Origin: a virus | Lineage: Duplodnaviria > Heunggongvirae > Uroviricota > Caudoviricetes | Virus record (IMG/VR): IMGVR_UViG_3300029577_000207 | DNA length: 12,718 nt | Strand: one strand, 5' to 3' | Shown here: in pieces, positions 1-12,718 of the stretch | How positions within the stretch are numbered: the stretch's first letter is position 1 | How the letters are laid out: each line of letters starts with the position of its first letter | The notes under the pieces: generated by a model | What the model was told of the DNA's origin: nothing | Databases searched by the model: none | The model's input: the letters and a program-made list of their open reading frames with translations, nothing else | Made by a program: the position numbers and the translations under genes

Positions 1-93
1 TTTTACTGGTTGATACTGTTTTTGTCATGTGAGTCACCTCTGACTGAGAGTTTACTCACTTAGCCGCGTGTCCACTATTGCTGGGTAAGATCA
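1..93 (-). mobile_element. IS3 terminus (left inverted repeat plus first codons of orfA on the - strand); the element body lies left of the window
   Basis: Reverse complement of 1-93 reads TGATCTTACCCAGCAATAGTGGACACGCGGCTAAGTGAG...ATGACAAAAACAGTATCAACCAGTAAAA, which I recognise from memory as the IS3 left end and orfA start. nt 13-93 are the exact reverse complement of nt 12638-12718. Confidence 0.85.
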
Positions 94-243
94 GAGAATA
101 CCTATGGATTCTGGCAAGGACCCCAACTATTCCAGATAAAGTAAAAGCAGACTATGTGCGAACCGCTCAAAAGTTGGGATTCAATGTCAATGAATTATTA
201 TGGGTTAAACAATAAAATCCCTACCCGAAATAATACTTATTAG

Positions 244-270
244 AAAAAAACCAGCCTTTGGGGAGGCTGG
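244..270 (-). terminator. Rho-independent terminator downstream of Q (tR'-like)
   Basis: Hairpin CCAGCCT/AGGCTGG at 251-270 (7-bp stem, 6-nt loop) followed on the - strand by a run of 7 T (244-250), about 100 nt downstream of the Q stop codon. Confidence 0.7.
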
Positions 271-370
271 CTAAATCAGGAAACAAGCTGTTATATGATA
301 ATAACTACGTTGCGATTCCAACATTTAAAATGTTAGACTAATGAGAATCAGACAGCAACTTTTCCTTTAA

Positions 371-748
371 TTATTTCGAACAATCAGCATCCATCTCCAA
401 TCGGAGATCCAATACCATCAGCATGCCCTCCACTACGCCCTCAGCTTTCTGGAGCATCCTGCCAACCCAACAATCAGATCGCCCATGCTTACGTGCAAGC
501 GCCATAAAAGTCATGCCGCCAACATAATAGTCCACCAATAAATCATGTAAATCGCTGTTGTTTTTTCTCAGGCGAGCCATACATTCACAAATGATCATCG
601 CGTCATCGTCACAGCATTGCGGACGAGATCTTACTTTTGAAGGAATTAATCCCTTAAAACCAGCGGCAATGGACGACCAGGTCACATCTTCATGATTATT
701 AGCCGCCCATGCCCCCCAACGCTCAAGAACCATCTGAATATCACGCAT
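371..748 (-). CDS. Late-gene antiterminator Q (phage 21/82 type, QuuD-like)
   Basis: The ORF begins [31 protein letters not shown]..., which I recall as near-identical to E. coli DLP12 QuuD. ATG at 748; the six-frame track's upstream extension to 763 starts with TTG. Sits at the distal end of the rightward operon, followed by a terminator. Confidence 0.75.
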
Positions 749-765
749 CAACTTACTCCACAAAA

Positions 766-1815
766 TTAGGCCAGCACACCAATTGCCAGCGCGCGATCGA
801 TAAATCGAAAAATCAGCTCCAGTTGGGAGCCATACTTCTCTTCAAATGCCACGGTATCCGTATGCAACTCGTCGTGATGCTTTCTGCACAAAGGCAACAC
901 AAAGAGATCATGTGCTTTGGTTCCCATTCCGCCCTGCCCGTGACCAATCAGATGATGCGGATCGTCGGCTGGCATCCCGCAGCAAGCACACGGCTGTGTC
1001 TTAACCCAGCGTGTGTATTTCTCCTTAACCCAACGGTGACGTTTAGGCAGCTTCATGAAAGATTCCGGAGACTCTGGATCAACGGTGATGCTTACCACCG
1101 TCTTTTCCTGTGATGGGTTTTGTTGCTGGTGGGCGTGAGGCAACGGTGCAAGATTTTTTGTGCGCTGTTTCAATATGCTGGTGGCGGTCTGCTCTCCCGG
1201 TACGATGTCGCTTTCGCGGTACACCGAGCAGATTTTTTCCGCTGGTAATCCCAGCGAGCGACGTAATACCGCTTCCGGTAGCGCGTCCGCCAGCTGATTG
1301 CGGAGCGCCCACCAGGATAATTCAGCCAGAGATAATTCACGCTCCTGCGTACCGCTTATTGCGTGACCGATGACGTCAATCATCCATGCTGACAGGTTTT
1401 GATGAGCAAGTTGCTCGAGTGATTCGGATGTCTGGTCACGCAGCTGGTTGTCGCAGTGCCAGCACAACACCATTGCGCCGGTACCATATCGGTGAATAAC
1501 GGTTTCGCTGTGATGATAATCGCCGTGTGGCCACTGGCAGGATTTAATATGGCGCAACAGCCAGTCAGACAATGCACCAGCACCACCAGCAGCACGAATT
1601 ACCCGTGCGTTACTGAAAAACGGCAGCAATGTTTTGTCTTCCACCAGCGGCTGGCGAACGGCAGGAACGACCCCGGACGGCAGATTACGCATGCTTTTCG
1701 GTTCCGGCTCCACCAGTACCCGGGTATTGTGGAATACCGGCATGGATTCACGGCCCGGCTTAACGACCACCAGCCCGAGTTCCGGTACCAGAACAGGTCG
1801 AAGTAATACCCGCAC
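766..1815 (-). CDS. ydfU: YdfU-like prophage protein with two HNH-like Cys/His clusters
   Basis: 349-aa ORF with GTG start at 1815 preceded by GGAGG; 1 nt after the stop of the upstream ORF. Contains [10 protein letters not shown]...H...CWHC and CACCG...HHLIGH...CRKHHDELH motifs. Position (between rem and Q) and length match my memory of K-12 Qin YdfU; the DUF968 assignment is from memory. Confidence 0.65.
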
Positions 1816-1816
1816 G

Positions 1817-2095
1817 TTACCTCCAGATGCGTTGCTGGAATGTACGGGACGGACGCGGTGGGCGTTCGGAGTAAGGCAATCTGACTGAGATTATCCAGTG
1901 ACGGTAGTCGAGACTAAGGGCTTTCTTAACCTCGTATCCGCGCCTGCGGTAACACTGAATTATCCATTCAGCCTGCTCTTCAGTGCATGGAGGGTGTTGG
2001 AACCATTCAGACTTGAATGCGTGAGAATACCGCTCGTGCGTGCAGGCAAGAACGGGCGAATTATCAGAATTGTAATATTTTACGTTGCGTGCCAT
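1817..2095 (-). CDS. Hypothetical 92-aa Cys/His-containing protein
   Basis: ATG at 2095 with GGAG about 8 nt upstream; stop codon abuts the ydfU GTG start, suggesting translational coupling. No family recognised. Confidence 0.55.
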   Translation of the reverse strand: MARNVKYYNSDNSPVLACTHERYSHAFKSEWFQHPPCTEEQAEWIIQCYRRRGYEVKKALSLDYRHWIISVRLPYSERPPRPSRTFQQRIWR

Positions 2096-2161
2096 CGGTT
2101 TTCTCCGGTGGCACGGTGTTACTCAGCGGGAGTTCAGCCCCGCGCAAGATTGTAGATGAGT

Positions 2162-2413
2162 TTATTCTTCTGCAAAAGCTGAAAAGCCTGCTTTTATTCC
2201 GATCTCTTTCAGTGCCTGTAATGAAGTGACAAACTCACCTTCGCGCAAGATAAATCCGTCTGTCACTCGACCATCCACAAAATTAATTAACGCAGCCCCA
2301 TTCTTTCGCAAACACATAATGCGGTAATGACTAACAAGATTTCCATTTTCAACGCACACAGCATAGAGGCCATCTTCACAAAAAATTTTACGCAGTTCTT
2401 CGATGTTCATCAT
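2162..2413 (-). CDS. rem: Rem-like small prophage protein (83 aa)
   Basis: ORF MMNIEELRKIFCEDGLYAVCVENG... with GGAAGG 6 nt upstream of the ATG at 2413. Size and position next to hokD match K-12 Qin rem as I recall it. Confidence 0.6.
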   Translation of the reverse strand: MMNIEELRKIFCEDGLYAVCVENGNLVSHYRIMCLRKNGAALINFVDGRVTDGFILREGEFVTSLQALKEIGIKAGFSAFAEE

Positions 2414-2529
2414 CAGAATCCTTCCGGATAATTAGCTCTCCCCTTTAAGGGACCATCCCTCTTATCCCTGCGCGCTACTTAAGTATTTTTGATTCTATTC
2501 CGGCACCGTCCAGAACTTCAAACGCGTTG

Positions 2530-2560
2530 AAAATAAAAACAAAAACCCGCCGAAGCGGGT
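2530..2560 (-). terminator. Rho-independent terminator of the hokD transcript
   Basis: Hairpin ACCCGC-CGAA-GCGGGT at 2545-2560 followed on the - strand by TTTTTGTTTTTATTTT. A second 9-bp-stem hairpin (2601-2622) lies between the hok stop and this terminator, as expected for a hok mRNA 3' fold-back element. Confidence 0.75.
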
Positions 2561-2629
2561 TAAGTGCGGGTGCGTTGAGGATGCCTGCCACATCAGAGGT
2601 GGCGAGGGATTTCTCCCTCGCCGGGTCTC

Positions 2630-2785
2630 TTACTCCTCAGGTTCGTAAGCTGTGAAGACAGCGACCTCCGTCTGGCCGGTTCGGATTCGTACCTCGCAGA
2701 GGTCTTTCCTCGTTACCAGTGCCGTCACTATGACGGTTAAACAGATGACGATCAGGGCGATTAACATCGCCTTTTGCTGCTTCAT
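2630..2785 (-). CDS. hokD: Hok-family type I toxin (51 aa), HokD/RelF-like
   Basis: Translation MKQQKAMLIALIVICLTVIVTALVTRKDLCEVRIRTGQTEVAVFTAYEPEE matches HokD as I remember it. AAGGAG 9 nt upstream of the ATG at 2785. An in-frame upstream ATG at 2842 gives the 70-codon frame listed in the ORF track (mok-like leader). Confidence 0.85.
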   Translation of the reverse strand: MKQQKAMLIALIVICLTVIVTALVTRKDLCEVRIRTGQTEVAVFTAYEPEE

Positions 2786-2834
2786 AGCCTGCTTCTCCTT
2801 GCCTTTCGGCACGTAAGAGGCTAACCTACATGTG

Positions 2835-2906
2835 TCTAGCATGAAATTGGCCTCAGATTAATGTTAAGCGTCTTGCAGGACGCGTAATGTTAACTGGGGC
2901 TTTTCT
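2835..2906 (+). ncRNA. Putative Sok-like antisense RNA to the hok leader (boundaries approximate)
   Basis: + strand promoter-like TTGCCT (2799-2804), 17-nt spacer, TAACCT (2822-2827), antisense to the hok leader and mok-like start; small hairpin 2868-2883 and a T-rich run at 2900-2908. Inferred from hok/sok architecture, not from a recognised sequence. Confidence 0.3.
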
Positions 2907-2960
2907 CTATCTGCCGTTGGTGTTCATGCCCGAGGCAGATAGCCTCAAGCACCCGCAGCC

Positions 2961-2989
2961 ATTCTACTTAACTACCGTTACCTCGCCAA
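2961..2989 (-). promoter_or_regulatory. Candidate sigma70 promoter of the hokD mRNA
   Basis: On the - strand: TTGGCG (2989-2984), 17-nt spacer, TAGAAT (2966-2961). Predicts a leader of about 170 nt before the hok ATG, as in hok-family mRNAs. Confidence 0.45.
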
Positions 2990-3467
2990 TATGAAATCAG
3001 TCAGAAAGGCGATCCATAAGAACAATAGCAAGACAATAAATCGCCATTACAGCCGTAATAGCCAGCGCACATTTGAGAACCAGCACCACAACCTCCTGTA
3101 TTGGACGTACACCAGTCCTGATGAATATGAGGCTGTCTCGTCAGTGATTCAATACAACTATTGGGTATAGTTTCTCTGATTTTTTCTGTGGAAATGGGGC
3201 TCAACCACTAGTCACCACCTGCACTTCTTTTAATACGCAAAGTCCGACACAAGCTAACCTTTTAGTCCGCTTTGAGCGAACAACGGAAGTTCGGAATAAA
3301 TACTGACATAGACGTGTTTTCTTGCGGTGGCCAGTTTTTGTTGACCACTTCATTGTACCTAATCTTGGAGGTTGATCAGTTAACCCTCATTATTGCGGGT
3401 TAACTGAAGTTAGGCTTACTGTGTATAGATAAAACAAGCGTTTTTCCAAGTTACCTTAGAAAAAGCC

Positions 3468-4400
3468 TTAAGTTAGAAGCCGTTCCTCGTAATCGTCGGT
3501 TGTGGGCATTTTTCCGATCTCTGTCATGCGACACACTAATCGGGATAAAAGCACTCGTACCTCAATTATATGCTCAACTAAAAAGTTATCTGACGTAGCT
3601 CCCCCATGCACTGCCTTCGAACGGTAGTCATACAGCTTCTTAACCCTACGATAGGTGGCTAAACGATCAGGCCCTCGCTCCTCAAGATATGCTGCGGCCA
3701 TAAGAGCAAGACGAAAACGAAGCTCTGAATTGATTCCAAAGAGCGCTTCAAATCCTGCCCATAAAGCAGCAGCAGCCATTCTCAAATTCGCGTGTTGGTT
3801 GTGAGTAGTTAAAGAATCAATAGCGAGCCGGAATGCTGGTTGCTCTAGCAGATCTATCCAACGCTTGAGATTCTCTTGAACCCAGTCGAGAGACTCTACT
3901 GATATCTCTACACTTGGGCTTATTCTCCGAACTGCCGGCACGTCCTCAAGAAGTTGGACTTCACACGAGTTGGCTTGAAGAGCAGGGAATACATCCCAAG
4001 ATGCACTTGCTACTGCAGGAACAAGTATATCGGTGAGTGTGCGGCATCGGATCGCGGATATGATCCACCATCCGATAGTCAGGTCTGATTGAGAAAATTT
4101 CGACTCACTGCTTTGCAACGCAAGCTCATGCGTAACTGCGGGCATATGACGAGCAACAGCGCTGAGTAGCGACTTGCTCTTAAGCGCTTTGGCTAACTCT
4201 ATCTCTCCTGGTGGATGAAGTACCTCCCTTAATTCACCTACGTCTTGGAAAACATAAGGCCCGTTTCGAAACGTCAATCCTGACAAAGCGAAACAGATCT
4301 CATTCTGACTGGATAAACTAGATATTCGAGTTGCAGCGTATTTCTTGCGAGACTCGAAGTAGTTAAGTAAACCTGACAATTTTTCTTTGTTGATTTCCAT
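3468..4400 (-). CDS. Orphan 310-aa hypothetical protein; candidate HEPN-like effector (C-terminal R-x4-H-G motif)
   Basis: Uninterrupted 933-nt ORF with long non-coding flanks (189 bp upstream, about 620 bp downstream). No family recognised; motif YDYRSKAVHGG at residues about 258-268 (nt 3606-3623), about 50 residues from the C-terminus. Weak Shine-Dalgarno. Confidence 0.7.
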   Translation of the reverse strand: MEINKEKLSGLLNYFESRKKYAATRISSLSSQNEICFALSGLTFRNGPYVFQDVGELREVLHPPGEIELAKALKSKSLLSAVARHMPAVTHELALQSSESKFSQSDLTIGWWIISAIRCRTLTDILVPAVASASWDVFPALQANSCEVQLLEDVPAVRRISPSVEISVESLDWVQENLKRWIDLLEQPAFRLAIDSLTTHNQHANLRMAAAALWAGFEALFGINSELRFRLALMAAAYLEERGPDRLATYRRVKKLYDYRSKAVHGGATSDNFLVEHIIEVRVLLSRLVCRMTEIGKMPTTDDYEERLLT

Positions 4401-4422
4401 ATTCCCAAGCTTAGAATTTTCG

Positions 4423-4450
4423 CTATTGTGTACCGTATATTACACAATAG
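4423..4450. promoter_or_regulatory. Perfect 10-bp inverted repeat (candidate operator or RNA hairpin) upstream of the 310-aa gene
   Basis: CTATTGTGTA-ccgtatat-TACACAATAG, 23-50 nt upstream of the ATG at 4400, flanked by AGCTTAG direct repeats. Confidence 0.5.
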
Positions 4451-4589
4451 CTTAGTTAGGGCGTAGGCGTCCGCTTTTGGCACAAAGCGGACAACCACGC
4501 CAGATCTACCCTGTGCCATGAAAAATGAGAATGTCAATTCACTCCTGAACTAATGCTTTTTAATCTAGTAACGTCTAAAATACCTAACA

Positions 4590-4991
4590 TTATCCCTGAT
4601 AAAATGCCAGTATGCGCTGCATAACTTCACTCATCCGGCACTCGCGACAGATTATGTTTAGGCGACTGTCGTAGCGACGTATTTCTCCATCAGGTAACGA
4701 CCAGATAAGGTCCGGATCAATCACAGCTGTTTTCTTCACCTTTGCCCTCGAGAGTTTTTTGCGGGCGTTTTGCCAGTCCTTACGCGCCTGTTCAGACGGG
4801 AATAACCCGTAACCAGAGCTGTATACATCGCCACTGGCAACCAGCTCTCTGGCCAGAACGCTCATCAGATATCTTGTTGCCCCAGTTTTAGCTTCCAGTT
4901 GTCGTAATGTCTCGCGCCCACTCTGGCGTACGAGTTCCACCACCTGCCCTTTAATTTTTTCCCGCTCTTCTTGTGTAAAAACTTTTGCCAC
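4590..4991 (-). CDS. Small (133 aa) protein with a predicted N-terminal winged-helix DNA-binding domain
   Basis: GTG start at 4991 with GGAGGA immediately upstream, 40 nt after the O-like stop. N-terminal region QVVELVRQSGRETLRQLEAKTGATRYLMSVLARELVASGDV has the pattern of PapI/FaeA-like winged-helix regulators (pattern-level similarity only). Confidence 0.65.
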   Translation of the reverse strand: MAKVFTQEEREKIKGQVVELVRQSGRETLRQLEAKTGATRYLMSVLARELVASGDVYSSGYGLFPSEQARKDWQNARKKLSRAKVKKTAVIDPDLIWSLPDGEIRRYDSRLNIICRECRMSEVMQRILAFYQG

Positions 4992-5031
4992 AAGTCCTCC
5001 TGAACATTACTTTATGCCCTAAAATCAACAC

Positions 5032-5997
5032 TTATCCCCTGAAACCAGGCGGAATTTCTGTATCCGGTTCAGAAATATGATTCACACAACGCTGTACAGG
5101 TGAACGTCCCAGGCGGATGACCAGTTCGTCCCATTTTTTGCGGAGTTTTGACGGGCTCATGATGTTTTTTACCCAGAATTGATCTCGCTGTACCCGACCA
5201 AACATTTCGCAAATTTGTCTGTGGCTTCTGCCATCCAGCATCCGCATTGTGCGCACGTCATTGGCCCAGGCTGTCCAGTTAGGCTCTTTTGGTCGCATGA
5301 TCTCTCCATCGTCGCTGGCAGCCTGTTCGTAAAGGTTCACGATCCGCCCCCAAATCCACTGCGCACACGCCAAATCCTCCCTGCTACCCCACTGGCGTTT
5401 TTTCGCACTAAACACAACCGCGTCGGGGTTCCGGGTTAAAAAATCCTGTTCAGCCGTCTGCGGGTCCGGTTGCGAAGCTTCCGGACGAAAAGTGTTTTTA
5501 TTCTCTGTAGTAATCTCTGTTGTATTCTCTGTAAGATCATCAGGCCATTTTGACCCGATGACATTGGGTCGTTTTGAACCAATGGAGCGTTTCATTTTGA
5601 CCTCTTCCATCGTGTCATTTTGACCTGATGGAGCGGCGCATTTTGAACTGATGGATTCGCTCAATTTGCCACCATCTAAAAGCTCGCTCCCGTAGTTGAT
5701 CGTGTAGAAATTGGTCATGTCGCGCTTTGATTTATTGAGCTTTTCGCAACGTAAAAGCCCCAGCGTTTTCAGACTTGCAAACGCGCGCTTTAACGTTGAC
5801 TCTGACCAGAACGGGAACTGTTCCAGCCATTGTTCCGTTGTGTTGTAAATCCAGCGAACACCATCACATTCCATGCCGGAATTGGTATCTCTCAACCAGT
5901 AATGCAACTGCTGCAACACAATGGCTTCGTTTAAGCCAATCTTCATCGCAAGCTGTGTGTTTATAACCAGTGGGCGTTCAGCAAAAAGAAGGCTCAT
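5032..5997 (-). CDS. Phage replication initiator (lambda O-like replisome organiser) containing the origin iterons
   Basis: N-terminal winged-helix region typical of O/DnaD-like initiators (...LNEAIVLQQLHYWL...WSESTLKRAFASLKTLGLL...), five direct repeats inside the coding sequence, and position after the cro/cII-like genes. First ATG at 5997; the track start at 6051 is TTG. Confidence 0.7.
   Translation of the reverse strand: MSLLFAERPLVINTQLAMKIGLNEAIVLQQLHYWLRDTNSGMECDGVRWIYNTTEQWLEQFPFWSESTLKRAFASLKTLGLLRCEKLNKSKRDMTNFYTINYGSELLDGGKLSESISSKCAAPSGQNDTMEEVKMKRSIGSKRPNVIGSKWPDDLTENTTEITTENKNTFRPEASQPDPQTAEQDFLTRNPDAVVFSAKKRQWGSREDLACAQWIWGRIVNLYEQAASDDGEIMRPKEPNWTAWANDVRTMRMLDGRSHRQICEMFGRVQRDQFWVKNIMSPSKLRKKWDELVIRLGRSPVQRCVNHISEPDTEIPPGFRG
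5546..5654. repeat. Replication origin iterons: five direct repeats of about 23 bp, consensus CATTTTGA(C/A)C..ATGG
   Basis: Repeat units begin at about 5546, 5570, 5593, 5616 and 5639 with a regular 23-24 bp period. Adjacent 5483-5540 is AT-rich with three TCTCTGT repeats that encode a T-T-E-rich linker in the O-like protein. Confidence 0.8.
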
Positions 5998-6499
5998 AAT
6001 TCCATCCAGCTTTTTGTTGGTATTGCTGTCGATACGCAAGTTTGAAAGCAATTGCTTTTTCTATAAGTTCGTCAGTTTCACGATCCACTACGGCAGGATC
6101 AGCAAAAAGCAGTCCGGACTCCACCACATCGCCATATTCTTTGTTTAACCCGGCGATCATGTACGTAATGCTTTTCCCGTCACTAATTTCACGATACAAC
6201 CTGAAATCACTAATCCGGATAGCCTCCATAATTGCAGGCACTAGCGCCGTGAACTTTTCACGCTTATCCCTGGTGTCAATAGCCTTCCAGCGTTCGAATA
6301 TCTTCACTCGATTAACGCCAAGCGCTCGCTGATCAACCGCGCCACCTTCATCTGTGACACGCTGAACATCGATGTTCGGGCGCTCTTTCAAAGACCAAAA
6401 TGCTTCAGTGATTAATATCGTCGCCTGCTCCTGTGTCATTCCTGGTCGACATATCCAGGCATCCAGAGCCTCACGAGCCTGTTCAGGAGTGATTTTCAT
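5978..6499 (-). CDS. Early-right operon protein at the YdaT/CII-equivalent position (function uncertain)
   Basis: 173-aa ORF with ATG at 6499, overlapping the dicC 3' end by 17 nt and the O-like start by 20 nt. Assignment is by position between cro-like and replication genes only. Confidence 0.5.
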   Translation of the reverse strand: MKITPEQAREALDAWICRPGMTQEQATILITEAFWSLKERPNIDVQRVTDEGGAVDQRALGVNRVKIFERWKAIDTRDKREKFTALVPAIMEAIRISDFRLYREISDGKSITYMIAGLNKEYGDVVESGLLFADPAVVDRETDELIEKAIAFKLAYRQQYQQKAGWNYEPSFC

Positions 6500-6710
6500 T
6501 GTTCAACCGCCCCGCCCGCTTCGTCTTACGATATTCGTCATAAACCTTGGGATCATACAGAAGCTCGCCGCCAGATGCCTCCTGTAGACGCATCGCGCGA
6601 CCTTCAGGAACCAGCTCTTGCCATTGAGAAACAGCAGATGGGTCAACGCCAGCAGCTTTCGCTACTTTGGCTTTCGTACCGTAAAAATTAATTACGTCTG
6701 ATTTAAACAT
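6483..6710 (-). CDS. dicC: Cro-like regulator DicC
   Basis: C-terminal sequence ...VPEGRAMRLQEASGGELLYDPKVYDEYRKTKRAGRLNNENHS matches DicC as I recall it. ATG at 6710 with GGGGGTG upstream; divergent from dicA. Confidence 0.75.
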   Translation of the reverse strand: MFKSDVINFYGTKAKVAKAAGVDPSAVSQWQELVPEGRAMRLQEASGGELLYDPKVYDEYRKTKRAGRLNNENHS

Positions 6711-6723
6711 CGCACCCCCAATA

Positions 6724-6737
6724 TTGAGTTTTCTCAA
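6724..6737. promoter_or_regulatory. Palindromic operator TTGAGTTTTCTCAA in the dicC-dicA divergent promoter region
   Basis: Perfect palindrome in the 77-bp dicC/dicA intergenic region. The same GAGTTTTCTCA core recurs at 7260-7273 and inverted at 7296-7305 upstream of ydfA. Confidence 0.55.
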
Positions 6738-6787
6738 TGCTAATCACTCAAGGAATCTCAAGTCAAGGGTTATTAAGATATCTAAAT

Positions 6788-7195
6788 ATGAACGAGAAAA
6801 CTTTAGGTCAACGCATTAGAGAAAGACGTAAGCAGGTAGGCTTAAGTCAAAACGGTTTAAGCAAAGCTGCTGGCGTATCTGGCTCATCAATTTCATTATG
6901 GGAAAGTGACCATACAGCCCCGCGCGGGCAAAATTTGCATCGCCTCGCCGAGGTATTGCAATGTTCACCAACCTGGATACTGTTTGGCGACGAGGACAAA
7001 ACACCAACTCCCCCTGTTTCACTCGATAGTGCCTTAGACTTATCGGAAGATGAGTTAGAGATGTTGCGTTTGTATCGCGCACTTCCTAAATCAGAGCAAC
7101 AAGCACAACTCAGCGAACTCCGCGCCCGCGTTGAGAATTTTAATCGCCTGTTCACCGAGCTATTAGAGGCTCGCAAACGCAACAAGCATCAATAA
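6788..7195 (+). CDS. dicA: Repressor DicA (cI-like HTH repressor of the dicB operon)
   Basis: 135-aa ORF MNEKTLGQRIRERRKQVGLSQNGLSKAAGVSGSSISLWESDHTAPRGQNLHRLAEVLQCSPTWILFGDEDK... closely resembles K-12 DicA. The track's start at 6737 is an upstream extension. Confidence 0.85.
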   Translation: MNEKTLGQRIRERRKQVGLSQNGLSKAAGVSGSSISLWESDHTAPRGQNLHRLAEVLQCSPTWILFGDEDKTPTPPVSLDSALDLSEDELEMLRLYRALPKSEQQAQLSELRARVENFNRLFTELLEARKRNKHQ

Positions 7196-7259
7196 TCATC
7201 CCTTCACAAAATTTTAAAGCCTTACATTTCAATGTATTGGCTTTATCTTGCGCCAATAC

Positions 7260-7311
7260 TTGAGTTTTCTCATCAAAAAGCCTTGACGAAAAATAATGAG
7301 AAAACTAAATT
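7260..7311 (+). promoter_or_regulatory. dicB-operon promoter with flanking DicA-operator-like inverted repeats
   Basis: TTGACG (7283-7288), 17-nt spacer, TAAATT (7306-7311), bracketed by GAGTTTTCTCAT (7262-7273) and its inverted copy ATGAGAAAAC (7296-7305). Confidence 0.5.
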
Positions 7312-7387
7312 ACCTCCATCAAGACACCGCACGGTGTTCTCAGCAAACAGTTCCGCTACCCCGGCGTTAAGGGGAAATGAGGTCAGC

Positions 7388-7543
7388 ATGGATACTATCG
7401 ATCTTGGCAACAGCGAATCTCTGGTATGTGGCGTGTTCCCCAACCAGGACGGTACGTTCACCGCGATGACGTATACCAAAAGCAAAACGTTTAAAACCGA
7501 AAATGGTGCCCGTCGCTGGCTGGAAAGAAACCCAGGTGAGTGA
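7388..7543 (+). CDS. ydfA: YdfA (51 aa, Qin-type prophage protein)
   Basis: MDTIDLGNSESLVCGVFPNQDGTFTAMTYTKSKTFKTENGARRWLERNPGE with GAGG 7 nt upstream; matches K-12 YdfA from memory. Confidence 0.8.
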   Translation: MDTIDLGNSESLVCGVFPNQDGTFTAMTYTKSKTFKTENGARRWLERNPGE

Positions 7544-7544
7544 T

Positions 7545-7673
7545 ATGGATTTCGACACAATCATGGAAAAGGCTTACGAAGAATACTTCGAAGGTCTTGC
7601 CGACGGCGAAGAAGCTCTCAGCTTCAACGAATTTAAACAGGCGCTTTCCAGTTCGGCAAAATCTAACGGCTGA
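7545..7673 (+). CDS. ydfB: YdfB (42 aa)
   Basis: ATG at 7545 preceded by AGGTGA, 1 nt after the ydfA stop; translated from the sequence as MDFDTIMEKAYEEYFEGLADGEEALSFNEFKQALSSSAKSNG. Below the size cutoff of the ORF track. Confidence 0.75.
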   Translation: MDFDTIMEKAYEEYFEGLADGEEALSFNEFKQALSSSAKSNG

Positions 7674-7702
7674 TAAGCGAAACAGCACCGCGAGGAATCA
7701 GT

Positions 7703-7921
7703 ATGCAGAAACGAGAACCCGTCATCATCGCGCCAGACTATACCGATGATGAACTTTATGAGTGGATGCGCCAGAAAATTAATGCAGCGCAGGATTTGAA
7801 ATGGGCCAATGAAACCAGGGCTAAGCAGGCTGAAAATCTGTCCGCTCTGGAGCAGGATATCACCAATCTGGAAAAAGCAGCGGCATTAAGCATTGCCAGA
7901 ATGATTACATACCCGCGTTAG
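7703..7921 (+). CDS. ydfC: YdfC (72 aa)
   Basis: ORF MQKREPVIIAPDYTDDELYEWMRQKINAAQDLKWANETRAKQAENLSALEQDITNLEKAAALSIARMITYPR with GAGGA upstream; position before dicF. Confidence 0.8.
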   Translation: MQKREPVIIAPDYTDDELYEWMRQKINAAQDLKWANETRAKQAENLSALEQDITNLEKAAALSIARMITYPR

Positions 7922-8261
7922 TAGCTAATCAACAAAGCTAAGGTTAGTAATTAAGGAGTTCTCCACGGGTGAGGTGGAGTGCGTGCGCCGGACACGGGTG
8001 AGCATCCGGCACTGACAGTTTACTGAAAGGATATTTCCCTGAAAAGTCAGACCATAACGCGAAAGCGCACGGCGAGGTAGCTGGTTCATAGATAGCCTGT
8101 CGTTAAATTTTCGTCGACCGTGCGCTTCCGGTTGTGGCAACCCGCGAAATGGCGCGGCGGTAAGTATGGCGGGGTTATTCCTTCCCCGTTGAGGACACCG
8201 GGTTGTCAGGTTGACCATACGCTTAAGTGACAACCCCGCTGCAACGCCCTCTGTTATCAAT

Positions 8262-8319
8262 TTTCTGGTGACGTTTGGCGGTATCAGTTTTACTCCGTGA
8301 CTGCTCTGCCGCCCTTTTT
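8262..8319 (+). ncRNA. dicF: DicF small RNA (53 nt plus U-tail), ftsZ-targeting sRNA of the dicB operon
   Basis: TTTCTGGTGACGTTTGGCGGTATCAGTTTTACTCCGTGACTGCTCTGCCGCCC followed by TTTTT matches the DicF sequence as I remember it; located between ydfC and dicB. Confidence 0.85.
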
Positions 8320-8488
8320 AAAGTGAATTTTGTGATGTGGTGAATGCGGCTGAGCGCACGCGGAACAGTTAAAACCAAAAACAGTGTTATGGGTGGATTC
8401 TCTGTATCCGGCGTTAATTGTTAACTGGTTAACGTCACCTGGAGGCACCAGGCACTGCATCACAAAATTCATTGTTGAGGACGCGATA

Positions 8489-8677
8489 ATGAAAACGTTA
8501 TTACCAAACGTTAATACGTCTGAAGGTTGTTTTGAAATTGGTGTCACTATCAGTAACCCAGTATTTACTGAAGATGCCATTAACAAGAGAAAACAAGAAC
8601 GGGAGCTATTAAATAAAATATGCATTGTTTCAATGCTGGCTCGTTTACGTCTGATGCCAAAAGGATGTGCACAATGA
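8489..8677 (+). CDS. dicB: Cell division inhibitor DicB (62 aa)
   Basis: MKTLLPNVNTSEGCFEIGVTISNPVFTEDAINKRKQERELLNKICIVSMLARLRLMPKGCAQ; GAGGA 7 nt upstream of the ATG at 8489. The track ORF from 8384 is an upstream extension. Confidence 0.85.
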   Translation: MKTLLPNVNTSEGCFEIGVTISNPVFTEDAINKRKQERELLNKICIVSMLARLRLMPKGCAQ

Positions 8678-8865
8678 ATTCAGCATTTGTGCTTGTTCTG
8701 ACAGTTTTTCTTGTTTCCGGAGAGCCAGTTGATATTGCAGTCAGTGTGCACAGGACAATGCAGGAGTGTATGACTGCAGCAACCGAACAGAAAATTCCCG
8801 GTAACTGTTACCCGGTCGATAAAGTTATTCACCAGGATAATATCGAAATCCCGGCAGGTCTTTAA
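8674..8865 (+). CDS. ydfD: YdfD (63 aa, small membrane/lysis protein)
   Basis: MNSAFVLVLTVFLVSGEPVDIAVSVHRTMQECMTAATEQKIPGNCYPVDKVIHQDNIEIPAGL; start overlaps the dicB stop in an ATGA arrangement. Confidence 0.8.
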   Translation: MNSAFVLVLTVFLVSGEPVDIAVSVHRTMQECMTAATEQKIPGNCYPVDKVIHQDNIEIPAGL

Positions 8866-8958
8866 AACAGTTCCGTAATAAATATCCGGTTTCATTCTTA
8901 TATGCCAGCAATGGCAGGGATTTGTTCATCCTTAAATCTGTCATGAGGTTAAAACAAA

Positions 8959-11430
8959 ATGAGTAAAGTCTTTATTTGCGCCGCTATTCCTGACGAACTG
9001 GCAACAAGGGAAGAAGGCGCTGTGGCTGTAGCCACAGCCATTGAAGCTGGCGACGAACGCCGTGCTCGAGCAAAATTTCACTGGCAGTTCCTGGAACATT
9101 ATCCGGCTGCTCAGGACTGCGCTTATAAATTTATTGTCTGCGAGGATAAACCTGGCATACCCCGCCCTGCCCTCGATTCATGGGATGCTGAATATATGCA
9201 GGAAAACCGCTGGGATGAGGAGTCTGCTTCTTTTGTCCCGGTTGAGACTGAATCCGATCCGATGAACGTCACTTTTGACAAGCTGGCCCCTGAAGTACAG
9301 AACGCTGTCATGGTTAAGTTCGACACATGTGAAAACATCACCGTTGATATGGTTATTAGCGCACAGGAATTGTTGCAGGAAGACATGGCAACATTCGACG
9401 GACATATCGTTGAAGCGTTGATGAAAATGCCAGAAGTTAACGCCATGTATCCGGAGCTTAAGTTGCACGCCATTGGGTGGGTTAAGCATAAATGTATTCC
9501 TGGTGCTAAATGGCCCGAAATTCAGGCAGAGATGCGCATCTGGAAAAAACGTCGCGAAGGTGAACGCAAGGAAACCGGAAAATACACGTCTGTTGTTGAT
9601 CTCGCCCGCGCCAGAACCAATCAACAGTACACTGAAAATTCAACAGGAAAAATCAGCCCGGTCATTGCTGCCATTCATCGCGAATACAAGCAGACATGGA
9701 AAACACTGGATGACGAACTGGCCTACGCTCTCTGGCCTGGTGATGTGGATGCCGGAAACATTGACGGCAGCATCCATCGCTGGGCAAAAAAAGAAGTTAT
9801 CGACAACGACCGCGAAGACTGGAAGCGTATCTCGGCATCAATGCGCAAACAGCCTGATGCCCTTCGCTACGACCGCCAGACTATTTTTGGCCTTGTCCGT
9901 GAGCGTCCGATCGACATTCACAAAGATCCCATAGCACTGAACAAATATATCTGCGAATACCTGACGACAAAGGGCGTGTTTGAGAATGAAGAAACAGACC
10001 TGGGCACTGTTGATGTTCTCCAGTCATCAGAAACACAAACTGATGCAGTGGAAACTGAGGTATCTGATATCCCAAAAAATGAAACCGCGCCGGAAGCTGA
10101 ACCATCTGTAGAGCGTGAGGGGCCGTTCTATTTCCTCTTCGCAGATAAGGACGGAGAAAAATACGGTCGCGCAAACAAACTTTCTGGTCTGGATAAGGCA
10201 CTGGCTGCTGGCGCCACTGAAATCACAAAAGAAGAATATTTTGCCCGAAAAAATGGCACATACACGGGCTTACCGCAAAATGTAGATACCGCTGAAGATT
10301 CAGAACAACCAGAGCCGATAAAAGTTACCGCTGACGAAGTAAACAAAATTATGCAGGCAGCCAATATCAGCCAGCCTGACGCCGATAAGTTGCTTGCTGC
10401 ATCACGTGGTGAATTTGTTGAAGGGATTAGTGACCCGAATGATCCGAAATGGGTTAAGGGGATCCAGACCCGCGATTCTGTGAACCAGAACCAGCATGAA
10501 TCGGAACGGAACTACCAAAAAGCGGAACAAAACAGCACAAATGCGTTACAAAACGAGCCAGAAACGAAACAGCCTGAACCAGTGGCGCAACTGGAAGTGG
10601 AAAAAGTCTGCACCGCCTGCGGTCAGACCGGCGGCGGCAACTGCCCTGATTGTGGCGCGGTGATGGGCGACGCAACATACCAGGAAACATTCGATGAAGA
10701 GTATCAGGTTGAAGTTCAGGAAGATGATCTGGAGGAAATGGAAGGCGCTGAACATCCACACAAGGAGAACACTGGCGGCAATCAGCATCACAATAGCGAT
10801 AATGAAACTGGCGAGACGGCAGATCACTCAATTAAGGTGAACGGTCATCACGAAATCACATCCACCAGCAGGACGTGTGACCATCTAATGATCGACCTTG
10901 AAACCATGGGAAAAAATCCTGATGCCCCGATCATCTCAATAGGTGCAATATTTTTCGATCCGCAAACCGGAGATATGGGACCGGAATTTAGTAAGACTAT
11001 CGATCTGGAAACTGCTGGCGGAGTCATTGATCGGGACACCATTAAATGGTGGCTTAAGCAATCACGCGAAGCGCAATCTGCCATTATGACCGATGAAATC
11101 CCGTTAGATGATGCACTGTTACAATTGCGGGAATTTATCGACGAAAACTCCGGTGAATTTTTTGTTCAGGTTTGGGGAAATGGAGCCAACTTCGACAACA
11201 CGATTTTGCGCCGTTCATACGAACGGCAGGGGATCCCCTGCCCGTGGCGTTACTACAACGATCGCGATGTACGCACAATCGTTGAGCTGGGGAAAGCCAT
11301 AGACTTCGATGCCAGAACGGCTATTCCATTCGAAGGTGAGCGCCATAATGCACTTGATGACGCCCGTTACCAGGCAAAATACGTTTCAGTTATCTGGCAA
11401 AAACTGATCCCGAGTCAGGCTGATTCTTAA
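8959..11430 (+). CDS. ydfE: YdfE-like large protein (823 aa) with C-terminal DnaQ-like (DEDDh) 3'-5' exonuclease domain and a CxxC-x8-CxxC zinc ribbon
   Basis: Exo I MIDLETMG, Exo II VWGNGANFDNTIL and Exo III HNALDDARYQ motifs in the last ~185 residues (about nt 10870-11427); CTACGQTGGGNCPDC at about nt 10609-10656; long acidic Q/E-rich linker. Gene symbol is by position after ydfD. Confidence 0.7.
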   Translation: MSKVFICAAIPDELATREEGAVAVATAIEAGDERRARAKFHWQFLEHYPAAQDCAYKFIVCEDKPGIPRPALDSWDAEYMQENRWDEESASFVPVETESDPMNVTFDKLAPEVQNAVMVKFDTCENITVDMVISAQELLQEDMATFDGHIVEALMKMPEVNAMYPELKLHAIGWVKHKCIPGAKWPEIQAEMRIWKKRREGERKETGKYTSVVDLARARTNQQYTENSTGKISPVIAAIHREYKQTWKTLDDELAYALWPGDVDAGNIDGSIHRWAKKEVIDNDREDWKRISASMRKQPDALRYDRQTIFGLVRERPIDIHKDPIALNKYICEYLTTKGVFENEETDLGTVDVLQSSETQTDAVETEVSDIPKNETAPEAEPSVEREGPFYFLFADKDGEKYGRANKLSGLDKALAAGATEITKEEYFARKNGTYTGLPQNVDTAEDSEQPEPIKVTADEVNKIMQAANISQPDADKLLAASRGEFVEGISDPNDPKWVKGIQTRDSVNQNQHESERNYQKAEQNSTNALQNEPETKQPEPVAQLEVEKVCTACGQTGGGNCPDCGAVMGDATYQETFDEEYQVEVQEDDLEEMEGAEHPHKENTGGNQHHNSDNETGETADHSIKVNGHHEITSTSRTCDHLMIDLETMGKNPDAPIISIGAIFFDPQTGDMGPEFSKTIDLETAGGVIDRDTIKWWLKQSREAQSAIMTDEIPLDDALLQLREFIDENSGEFFVQVWGNGANFDNTILRRSYERQGIPCPWRYYNDRDVRTIVELGKAIDFDARTAIPFEGERHNALDDARYQAKYVSVIWQKLIPSQADS

Positions 11431-11502
11431 TGTTCAACTGTCGCCGGTTGTGACTGGTATTCTGCAACCGGCGCTCGTCTAATGTAAGAGATAAAGAAAT
11501 CG

Positions 11503-11754
11503 ATGAGCGAAGTAATCATGATTGTCTCTCCCGGCAAATGGGTATCCGAAGAGCAGTTAATTGCGCTGAAAGGAATAAAAAAAGGTACGTTAAAAAAGGC
11601 CCGGAAAAAATCGTTTATGGAAGGAAGGGAATATAAGCATGTCGCTCATGACGGTATGCCATGGGATAACAGCCCATGCTTTTACAACCTGGAAGAAATT
11701 GATCGCTGGATTGAGCGCCAGGCATCAGCGAGACCAAGACGTCATCTTACTTGA
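11503..11754 (+). CDS. Excisionase (Xis-like)
   Basis: 83-aa ORF immediately upstream of the integrase, with a GREY motif region (FMEGREYKHVAHDG) reminiscent of lambda Xis (DGREYLFHESAV). Start codon choice (11503 vs 11518) uncertain. Confidence 0.6.
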   Translation: MSEVIMIVSPGKWVSEEQLIALKGIKKGTLKKARKKSFMEGREYKHVAHDGMPWDNSPCFYNLEEIDRWIERQASARPRRHLT

Positions 11755-11788
11755 CTAAAAGCCACACTAACTAATGAGAGAAGTTGAA

Positions 11789-12640
11789 ATGAAATATCCG
11801 ACAGGCGTGGAAAACCATGGAGGGAAATTACGTATCTGGTTTGTTTATAAAGGCGTAAGAGTCAGGGAAAATCTGGGGGTTCCTGACACAGCAAAAAACA
11901 GGCGCGTTGCAGGTGAACTACGCGCCTCTGTTTGTTACGCAATAAAAACTGGTGTTTTCGACTATGCAAAACAGTTTCCCTCCTCACGCAATCTGGAAAA
12001 ATTTGGTGAGGCCCGACAAGATTTAACCATAAAAGAACTGGCTGAAAAATTTCTGGCACTGAAAGAAACTGAAGTCGCAAAAACATCACTCAACACATAC
12101 CGTGCCGTCATCAAAAATATCCTGAGCATAATCGGTGAAAAAAATCTTGCCTCATCGATTAATAAAGAAAAATTACTGGAGGTTCGTAAAGAGCTACTGA
12201 CTGGATACCAGATCCCCAAAAGTAACTATATTGTTACACAACCAGGGAGATCGGCTGTAACTGTAAATAATTACATGACAAATCTTAACGCCGTGTTCCA
12301 GTTTGGTGTTGATAACGGTTACTTGGCAGATAACCCGTTTAAGGGGATCTCGCCATTAAAGGAATCAAGAACCATTCCGGATCCTCTTTCGCGGGAGGAA
12401 TTCATCCGTCTTATCGATGCGTGCAGAAATCAGCAAGCCAAAAATTTATGGTGTGTTTCTGTTTATACTGGCGTTCGCCCTGGTGAGCTGTGTGCACTTG
12501 GATGGGAGGACATAGATCTGAAAAATGGAACAATGATGATCAGGAGAAATTTAGCAAAAGACCGTTTCACGGTACCAAAAACACAGGCGGGAACCAATCG
12601 GGTCATTCATCTTATTAAGCCAGCAATCGACGCTCTCTGA
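11789..12640 (+). pseudogene. Tyrosine-recombinase phage integrase, 3'-truncated by IS3
   Basis: N-terminal SAM-like domain and the first catalytic Arg region (TGVRPGELCALGWEDIDL) are present, but the ORF ends after about 283 codons with a TGA supplied by the first three bases of the IS3 terminus (12638-12640). The downstream His/Arg/Tyr catalytic residues are missing. Confidence 0.8.
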
Positions 12641-12718
12641 TCTTACCCAGCAATAGTGGACACGCGGCTAAGTGAGTAAACTCTCAGTCAGAGGTGACTC
12701 ACATGACAAAAACAGTAT
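12638..12718 (+). mobile_element. IS3 terminus (left inverted repeat plus orfA start at 12703); element continues rightward out of the window
   Basis: TGATCTTACCCAGCAATAGTGGACACGCGGCTAAGTGAG...ATGACAAAAACAGTAT, the IS3 left end as I recall it; exact inverted copy of nt 13-93. Confidence 0.85.

Follow-up and report, generated by a model that had tools for sequence, protein, structure and literature searches.

A gut metagenome contig probably holding the early half of a Qin-type prophage, bounded by two IS3 insertions at an assembly break

Background

The closest described relatives of the locus reported here are the Qin (Kim) prophage of Escherichia coli K-12 and its kin, with which it has in common the order of a Q-type antiterminator, ydfU, rem, hokD/sok and cro/dicA. 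The integrase of these prophages is often defective, and mutations in intQ are a common cause of Qin 'grounding' (PMC6379469). Also held in common are ydfA, DicF, dicB, ydfD, an exonuclease, xis and int.

The insertion sequence IS3 (IS3 family, IS3 group) is a 1258-bp element whose orfA and orfB are connected by a -1 frameshift and whose insertion is accompanied by a 3-bp target duplication. Its target sites are without a clear consensus (PMC10379815). Because IS3 is present in multiple copies, assemblers fail to read across it, and contigs end there.

The window, by which we mean the entire stretch of 12,718 nucleotides analysed, had been interpreted in a sequence-only reading as a prophage remnant bracketed by two IS3 ends and both excision-dead and lysis-dead, with an assembly contig breaking in IS3 repeats as the fallback. 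We consider it very probable that the early half of a Qin-type prophage, two opposite IS3 insertions and an assembly break together form the whole explanation. The window would be a complete or near-complete short-read (de Bruijn graph) contig of a human-gut E. coli strain, containing the early half of a lambdoid prophage, of the type found integrated beside rspB, in the order Q, ydfU, rem, hokD/sok, replication genes, cro/dicA, DicF, dicB, exonuclease, xis and the 5' part of int. Two distinct copies of the 1258-bp IS3 would have inserted in opposite orientations, one into a blc-like lipocalin cargo gene converging on Q and the other at codon 283 of the integrase. The contig would stop one k-mer's length into each of them, which would produce a terminal inverted repeat.

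Results and discussion

By megablast, the window is colinear with Qin-type prophages at rspB, the best match being NZ_CP115186 (98.3% identity over 94% of the window), and at least 80% of its length is covered, at 96-98% identity, by 232 genomes. All genome matches end at window position 12637 and at 89-92. The block adjoins rspB-rspA-ynfA in every complete relative; the window itself lacks both the attachment site and the int 3' end, and a position at rspB is presumed for it from these relatives. A twin of the window, ENA contig ERZ920233 k127_3154 (12790 nt, hereafter L005), assembled with MEGAHIT at k=127 from a human-gut sample whose reads are ERR1190801 of project PRJEB12124, is 100% identical over the fetched stretch (window 1789-12718). 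Megablast, RefSeq relatives, Rfam and Pfam together place the gene content and order, including DicF and dicB, within the Qin type.

The antiterminator gene Q (371..748, minus strand; 125 aa; Pfam Phage_antitermQ, 1e-50) has a terminator-like hairpin with a T run downstream of it (249..272, minus). On its other side the minus strand carries ydfU (766..1815; DUF968, HNH-like; Pfam DUF968 at 2e-76 and the RefSeq name in relatives), rem (2162..2413; synteny with L001, and Pfam Rem on L005) and hokD/sok (2630..2954), where the 70-aa form of the hokD toxin ORF (2630-2842; Pfam HOK_GEF on L005) is accompanied by a sok match at 2780-2954 (Rfam RF01794, 115 bits). A 310-aa cargo protein (3468..4400, minus), named 'HEPN domain-containing protein' by RefSeq in relatives, gave no match in Pfam, PADLOC or NCBIfam; it is present in other islands too. 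The replication region (4590..6499, minus; Pfam) comprises a DUF977 gene (4590-4991; Pfam), a 321-aa protein with internal iteron-like repeats (5032-5997) and a YdaT-like protein (5978-6499; Pfam), the repeats reading CATTTTGA(A/C)C..GATGG with a spacing of about 23-24 bp across 5538-5680.

The immunity switch consists of a Cro-like gene (6483-6710, minus; Pfam P22_Cro on L005) and a DicA-like repressor (6737-7195, plus; HTH_3, 2e-15). The plus strand then carries the DicF small RNA (8263..8314; Rfam RF00039, 76.7 bits, full length), dicB and ydfD (8489..8865; Pfam DicB and DUF1482 on the identical L005 at 6701-7077, offset 1788), an 823-aa exonuclease (8959..11430; YdfE/RecE-like; Pfam YdfE_N, YdfE_C and Rv2179c-like, with a match to NCBIfam exodeoxyribonuclease VIII that falls below the cut-off), an excisionase (11503..11754; DUF1233; annotation of relatives, L005) and the integrase. 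The alleles of the exonuclease and the 310-aa protein are very widespread (3170 and 2605 index blocks, respectively) and, not being lineage-specific, were rejected as pointers to the nearest resolved genome.

A repeat search of the window returned a perfect inverted repeat with 85-nt arms at 13-97 and 12634-12718, 100% complementary and each composed of 81 nt of IS3 left end plus 4 nt of native target, TCTC. The search agrees with the earlier observation that nucleotides 13-93 are the reverse complement of 12638-12718, and makes the repeat 4 nt longer. The assignment of both ends as inward-facing IS3 left ends with the orfA start was likewise correct: window 1-93 (minus, as reverse complement) and 12638-12718 (plus) are identical to nucleotides 1-93 and 1-81 of an annotated 1258-bp IS3 (L002, 4836-6093). 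Both read out of the window from the terminal repeat IRL into the start of orfA, of which the right end includes the first 16 nt, and the transposase ATG lies at 28-26 and at 12703-12705. The extra nucleotides, GAGA at 94-97 and TCTC at 12634-12637, belong to the target genes, being present in strain MY203L1, where blc and int are uninterrupted, and are therefore not part of IS3.

An 85-nt perfect inverted repeat in 12.7 kb cannot have arisen by chance; only in the 4 nt shared by the flanks (about 1/256) could chance be at work. In a set of 79 distinct IS3 left-end flanks, the two sites of the window are the only ones with TCTC, and the target preference amounts to at most 0.24 bit per position, with no preference for TCTC. 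Because both tetranucleotides are native to uninterrupted genes, we rejected a mechanistic origin of the shared TCTC through donor-flank carry-over or duplicative inversion. By our own derivation, replicative inversion would leave the duplicated bases at an inner end and an outer end instead of at both left ends.

The left IS3 interrupts the convergent blc-like lipocalin gene at codon 135, leaving in the window the last 40 codons (94..215, plus; stop 213-215; colinear with L001 5603-6127), with the translation EYLWILARTPTIPDKVKADYVRTAQKLGFNVNELLWVKQ. In strain MY203L1 the uninterrupted gene reads ...CCGAACA GAG AATACC. The fusion protein predicted across the missing junction, Blc(1-135)+VILPT, was found exactly on 27 contigs by a look-up in a protein collection and is present in NCBI draft genomes too, and partner contigs L133-L142 read ...CCGAACAGAG joined directly to TGATCCTACCC, the IS3 right end, with AACAGAG as the last bases before IS3. 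One of the 27, k127_92854 (25264 nt, L133), comes from sample ERZ920233, as does the twin of the window; it ends in CCGAACAGAG followed by the IS3 right end, and carries ybgA, IS1, holin, lysozyme, Rz, terminase and portal genes. The recovery of a partner junction with GAG means that the left IS3 is a simple insertion with a 3-bp target duplication, its inner copy at window 94-96 (intact blc and partner contigs) and its outer copy on the partner contigs, and that the lysis and packaging genes are still present. Beyond this IS3 the prophage would go on with the blc 5' half, ybgA, IS1, holin, lysozyme, Rz, cspI, gnsB, terminase and portal. The 45-aa IS3-blc fusion ORF of the window (78-215) is not on record by exact look-up.

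These results bear directly on the earlier interpretation of the 12.5 kb as an isolated remnant, left lysis- and excision-dead by IS3-mediated removal of the late region and the int 3' end. Both ends of the window are indeed IS3, no lysis or structural gene lies within it and the truncation of the integrase is real; however, the same sample holds the blc 5' half joined to an IS3 right end with matching GAG on a contig that carries ybgA, lysis genes, terminase and portal, on the inner side of the left IS3 blc resumes exactly where it broke off, and an IS3-mediated deletion would leave no duplication. Already contradicted on the left side, a remnant is highly improbable, and with holin, lysozyme, Rz, terminase and portal on the partner contig the 12.5 kb is not lysis-dead but the early half of a larger prophage. 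The left IS3 had been placed about 150 bp past the Q terminator, where holin, endolysin and morphogenesis genes would normally follow; the distance stands (the hairpin lies about 155 bp from the IS3 end), but the DNA at this position is the blc-like gene, and it is this gene that the element interrupts.

Two copies of the same IS flanking a 12.5-kb segment in inverted orientation also recall a composite transposon, in which IS3, prophage and IS3 moved as a unit. The segment nevertheless sits in its native prophage context: blc is contiguous across the left IS3, which has its own GAG/GAG duplication, and the inner 12.5 kb is colinear with uninterrupted prophages. The outer ends of such a transposon would, moreover, both be right ends. 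We regard this possibility as extremely improbable.

From its RefSeq-type start at 11789, the integrase ORF (11789..12640, plus) retains 283 of 426 codons and ends in a TGA (12638-12640) formed by IS3 nucleotides 1-3, so that ORF and IS3 alignment agree with the earlier claim of an IS3-supplied stop after about 283 codons. An uninterrupted integrase, for which a check of other strains had been proposed, is found in strain MY203L1, whose intact 426-aa int contains the native CTC target (...GACGCT CTC CGGAGT). Window 12635-12637, also CTC, is the presumed inner target duplication of the right IS3. The truncated protein covers positions 4-72 of 172 in Pfam Phage_integrase (PF00589), as against 4-165 in the intact 426-aa protein, and aligns to XerD positions 9-171 of 290; by both alignments a complete tyrosine recombinase catalytic domain is absent. 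H244, R247, H270 and Y279, which we take to be the catalytic residues of XerD, fall beyond the aligned part. As the truncated protein is without the C-terminal third of Int and the part of the catalytic domain within it, which the right insertion would have stripped away, it is fair to deduce from sequence, as had been done before, that the prophage would be excision-dead, at least as regards excision by its own integrase.

On the other side of the right IS3, the partner junction is predicted to run from the IS3 right end through CTC into CGGAGT (after the IS3 right end: CTCCGGAGTCAG; CTCCGGAGTCAGATG). The end of k127_92854 consists of GAG plus 124 nt of IS3, 127 in total, which implies that the sample contains another IS3 right end next to GAG, in keeping with the prediction at int. 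The 3-bp duplications expected at the far ends of both copies are thus present on the left, as GAG on both sides, while the outer copy on the right is deduced from 124+3=127 and is probable. A scan of JGI metagenomes matched neither the int 3' partner junction nor the right junction of the window, and a scan of IMG/VR matched neither window junction. A 140-aa ORF of the Int C-terminus (P0016) was rejected as a marker of the partner junction, since it arises from many other int lesions, including frameshifts and insertions of IS1, other IS3-family elements and IS5-type elements.

The twin reaches 42 nt further into IS3 than the window on the right and, by its length, 30 nt further on the left; both of its terminal repeats are therefore 127 nt, equal to the assembler's k. 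Terminal repeats of this length strongly indicate that the assembly broke off inside a repeat, and the fallback of the sequence-only reading is in this way borne out. No carrier contig, the window included, reaches more than 127 nt past the IS ends.

An exact look-up of the 283-aa truncated integrase gave 22 contigs, of which ten were listed. Nine of the ten (L006-L014) were rejected as IS3 junctions: these contigs merely end at codon 283, some of them going on with C, the base of the intact allele, at the junction, and their matches are a selection artefact of an exact-sequence look-up. Among the matches listed, the int::IS3 junction is found only on L005 and its four look-alikes.

The metagenomic source admits a chimera, in which the two junctions stem from co-resident strains with one insertion each. 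With 46 index blocks, blc::IS3 is commoner than int::IS3 (L005 and four similar places, among the matches listed), so that strains with blc::IS3 only very probably exist. Against a chimera, an intact allele at comparable depth would branch the graph at the junction, as in L006-L014, whereas L005 and L133 run 123-124 nt into IS3, past their junctions. About five further assemblies, moreover, give the same pair of contigs (four places similar to L005, five to L133). A chimera is accordingly very improbable, and both insertions would belong to one genome. From graph logic rather than a spanning read, we infer the linkage of three contigs: that of the window type, k127_92854 and the one on the rspB side.

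Among 5426 complete E. coli genomes, int::IS3 at codon 283 is absent and neither window junction is resolved, the only matches being in two pieces. These were rejected as instances of the window's arrangement, since IS3 had inserted there independently, 31 bp and 237 bp from the window's sites. In seven genomes of enterotoxigenic (ETEC) strains, 504239 and TW11681 among them, the same integrase is interrupted by IS3 in the same orientation but 237 bp further into int, with the duplication TAT. In 23 others, IS3 lies in the blc-like gene of a lambda-like prophage, again in the same orientation but 31 bp upstream in blc, with the duplication ATA. Both independent sites adjoin the motif ATACTTA, which the sites of the window do not.

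The structure that we favour, an early half flanked by two opposite insertions, might also occur with its 12.5 kb inverted, or switching orientation by recombination between the IS3 copies, as RecA can act on 1.26-kb inverted repeats separated by 12.5 kb. Short reads are blind to such repeat-mediated inversions, as the junctions stay the same (PMC5009759); here, too, the junction sequences would be alike in both orientations, and we consider an inverted or switching state unlikely. As a statement on the DNA, the earlier view that the segment could move or invert only through IS3 homology is reasonable. Were inversion real, it would make Q and its late promoter point now towards, now away from the genes for holin, lysozyme and packaging. 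That a gut E. coli lineage thereby possesses an invertible early-region cassette, a reversible IS-built switch uncoupling lysis from the regulatory region, has only a slight chance of being true, and a regulatory role for the inversion is speculation.

Conclusions

The finding is real, but its biology is ordinary: a further case of an IS-broken cryptic Qin-type prophage, and of short-read assemblies fragmenting at IS copies, with little biological weight. Its lesson is one of method. When a metagenome contig ends in an inverted repeat, the first reading should be that the assembly broke off within a repeat, rather than that a mobile unit has its edge there. A fusion ORF predicted across the missing junction, together with an exact-sequence look-up, sufficed to recover the neighbouring contig and to overturn the 'remnant' reading.

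In its comparison with known systems, the locus shows no difference from IS3, of which the window displays the ends alone: its termini (93 and 81 nt) are identical to the element, the left copy has a 3-bp duplication, and there is no clear site consensus. It resembles short-read contigs that end in a multi-copy IS in that the overlap of the twin equals k and the partner contigs end in the complementary IS end; the window's own arms of 97 and 85 nt are unequal and not a standard k, unlike the 127 nt of the twin. With respect to the Qin prophage of K-12, which has ydfT/quuQ, the window represents a variant with a 125-aa Q of the PF06530 type, a 70-aa hokD without relBE, and a 310-aa 'HEPN' gene and a blc/ybgA cargo block between Q and holin, while its partner contig keeps terminase and portal.

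IS3 ends and their flanks

The window is correctly read as part of a larger prophage with an inactivated integrase, cut at IS3 repeats. Its ends form an 85-nt inverted repeat (13-97 and 12634-12718, 100%). The outermost 93 nt on the left and 81 nt on the right match, at 100%, the left end of a 1258-bp IS3 that is annotated in L002 (4836-6093), with the transposase ATG within both ends (28-26 and 12703-12705). This identity upholds the sequence-only reading in its claim that the IS3 left ends point inward, both copies reading outward. The repeat exceeds IS3 by 4 nt, both sites carrying TCTC followed by TGATC. TCTC is native to the uninterrupted int of a close relative (GACGCTCTC followed by CGGAGT) and, on the other strand, to the uninterrupted blc (GGTATTCTC followed by TGTTCGG), and was therefore not carried by IS3. 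Among 79 distinct IS3 left-end flanks, drawn from genome and viral contig collections, the TCTC flank is unique to the window's two sites. Information content is at most 0.24 bit at every position of these flanks, in agreement with the literature, where no IS3 insertion preference is reported (PMC10379815). The shared 4-nt flank of the two insertions is accordingly treated as a coincidence, of about 1/256.

In three IS3 insertions that arose independently in genes of lambdoid prophages, namely ybgA, int and blc, the motif ATACTTA ends 1-2 nt before the left end (GGTTATACTTAAC, GACATACTTAT and GAGCATACTTATA; L002 6094-6108, L003 16281-16295, L004 16055-16069), and a fourth IS3 (L112) occupies the same ybgA site with a 1-nt shift and in the opposite orientation. 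No further carriers were present among the 79 sites; the motif may define a minor IS3 hot-spot class, despite the lack of target preference in the literature. Exact E. coli IS3 left ends also occur in the GTDB representative set on short contigs in MAGs and drafts of unrelated phyla, namely L025, L028, L034 (Candidatus Nanosynbacter MAG), L041 (Bacteroidales MAG), L045 (Prevotella MAG), L038 (Rhodococcus) and L027 (Lamprocystis); mis-binning of, or contamination by, E. coli contigs that end in IS3 is the most likely source.

Disruption of the integrase

The integrase, intact at 426 aa in relatives, here stops after codon 283 at a TGA that is nt 1-3 of IS3. This confirms the proposed truncation at about 283 codons with a stop supplied by the IS3 terminus, and the relatives provide the uninterrupted gene that was to be sought in other strains. 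The truncated protein retains the arm-binding domain, while its Pfam Phage_integrase match covers positions 4-72 of 172 (4-165 in the intact protein) and its XerD alignment positions 9-171 of 290. Because the His-x-x-Arg, His/Trp and nucleophilic Tyr of tyrosine recombinases fall in the missing part, the loss of integrase activity can soundly be inferred. This integrase is often disrupted; 398 index blocks contain the 140-aa C-terminal ORF of the broken gene, and the lesions behind it include frameshifts, IS1, and other IS3-family and IS5-type elements. A review has named intQ mutations as a likely cause of Qin 'grounding' (PMC6379469).

Exact look-up of the truncated protein also returned contigs that simply end at that codon: nine of the ten matches listed (L006-L014) are without IS3 at codon 283, some then having the intact-allele base C. 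Contigs ending by chance at the queried codon are thus a trap for junction finding by exact protein look-up.

The left insertion and its partner contig

According to the sequence-only reading, the left IS3 lay some 150 bp beyond the Q terminator, at the point where genes for holin, endolysin and morphogenesis normally follow. The minus strand does have a terminator-like hairpin at 272-249, but the insertion site is inside a convergent blc-like lipocalin gene, whose last 40 codons occupy 94-215 and which is uninterrupted in strain MY203L1 (L001 5603-6127). Onward in relatives the order is blc, ybgA, an IS1-broken HTH gene, holin, ydfR, lysozyme and Rz. The IS1 between ybgA and holin, within the HTH gene, is found in the same lineage too (L133 7675-8369; L001 3277-3971), so that, between Q and the lysis genes, two IS elements of different kinds interrupt the late operon of this prophage.

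A simple insertion predicts that the other half consists of blc codons 1-135 and then G followed by TGATCCTACCCACGTAA, that is, Blc(1-135)+VILPT. This 140-aa query, built from the MY203L1 allele, was found by exact-identity look-up on 27 contigs (NCBI, JGI, Logan, ENA), and all ten fetched matches listed read CCGAACAGAG directly into the IS3 right end. The 3-bp target duplication was thereby recovered for the left IS3, with GAG at 94-96 and again at the partner-contig junction. A composite transposon is excluded, since the left copy is flanked by a duplication of its own and lies within contiguous blc sequence.

The partner contig k127_92854 (25264 nt), from a human gut sample (ENA ERZ920233, run ERR1190801), shares 99.88% identity with MY203L1 over 6 kb, and the same sample gave k127_3154 (12790 nt), 100% identical to the window over the fetched stretch, 1789-12718. 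The partner carries ybgA, IS1, holin, DUF1327, lysozyme, Rz, cspI, gnsB, DUF1398, Nu1, the large terminase subunit, gpW and portal. Lysis and packaging genes thus lie beyond IS3, and the description of the segment as a 'lysis-dead remnant' therefore fails. The partner junction on the int 3' side was not itself retrieved; scans of JGI metagenomes and IMG/VR gave none of the junctions, which are also absent from all 5426 complete E. coli genomes.

Assembly signature

The twin k127_3154 reaches further into IS3 than the window (42 nt on the right; 30 nt, by length, on the left), and each of its terminal arms, 123 nt of IS3 and the 4-nt shared flank, therefore comes to 127 nt, the k of that MEGAHIT assembly. 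These arms and the IS3-ended partner favour the alternative that had been offered, a contig breaking in IS3 repeats; the window's own arms are 97 and 85 nt, neither a standard k. At the end of the partner contig, GAG and 124 nt of the right end of IS3 likewise add up to 127 nt, so that the contig stopped where a k-mer first coincides with one from a second IS3 right-end junction, also with GAG outside but differing in the fourth base. The int partner as predicted (ACTCCGGAG followed by TGATCC) fits this second junction exactly, lending indirect support to a CTC duplication at int; we estimate at about one in ten the chance of a random other IS3 copy giving the same stop.

Both contigs pass their junctions far into IS3, whereas L006-L014 stop at the junction itself, the pattern where an intact allele competes; the dominant strain of the sample therefore most likely carries both insertions. 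Contigs of these two types recur in about five further assemblies (4 and 5 similar places). The blc insertion (46 index blocks) is commoner than that in int and, being more widespread, was probably the earlier.

Identity and gene content

Megablast against the 5426 genomes covered at least 80% of the window in 232, the top match being MY203L1 (98.3% over 94%), and every alignment was limited at 12637 on the right and 89-92 on the left. The block corresponds in relatives to the early half of a lambdoid prophage of Qin type adjoining rspB-rspA-ynfA. It comprises the Q antiterminator (371-748), ydfU (766-1815), rem (2162-2413), hokD (2630-2842, minus strand), sok (2780-2954, Rfam match), a 310-aa cargo protein (3468-4400, minus strand), DUF977, a 321-aa protein and a YdaT-like protein (4590-6499), a cro-like/dicA-like switch (6483-7195), DicF (8263-8314), dicB and ydfD (8489-8865), an 823-aa exonuclease (8959-11430), xis (11503-11754) and int (from 11789).

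In the hokD region (2630-2954, minus strand) the gene has its 70-codon form, the sok match is full and relBE is not adjacent; PMC6379469 describes this as the ancestral condition, insertion of relBE having later cut hokD to 51 codons in K-12. Within the 321-aa ORF (5032-5997, minus strand), which has no match in Pfam, iteron-like repeats with the sequence CATTTTGA(A/C)C..GATGG, about six in number, follow one another every 23-24 bp at 5538-5680 and look like an origin within a lambda-O-like initiator gene. The 310-aa protein, named 'HEPN domain-containing' by RefSeq in relatives, gave no match in Pfam, PADLOC or NCBIfam. Identical copies have at least three settings unrelated to one another: in Qin-type prophages, in a Mu/P2-like remnant near xdhC-ecpD, and beside a P4-type integrase island. 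They are often adjoined by a 327-aa partner, and the gene is a mobile cargo gene.

Comparison with known systems

The original observation was accurate and the finding is real, its component elements, IS3 and a Qin-type prophage, both being well known. A 12.5-kb inversion between the inverted IS3 copies alters no junction and would therefore be invisible to short reads, as inversions of this kind are (PMC5009759). In other strains the same two genes contain IS3 in the same orientation but at different sites, as independent insertions.
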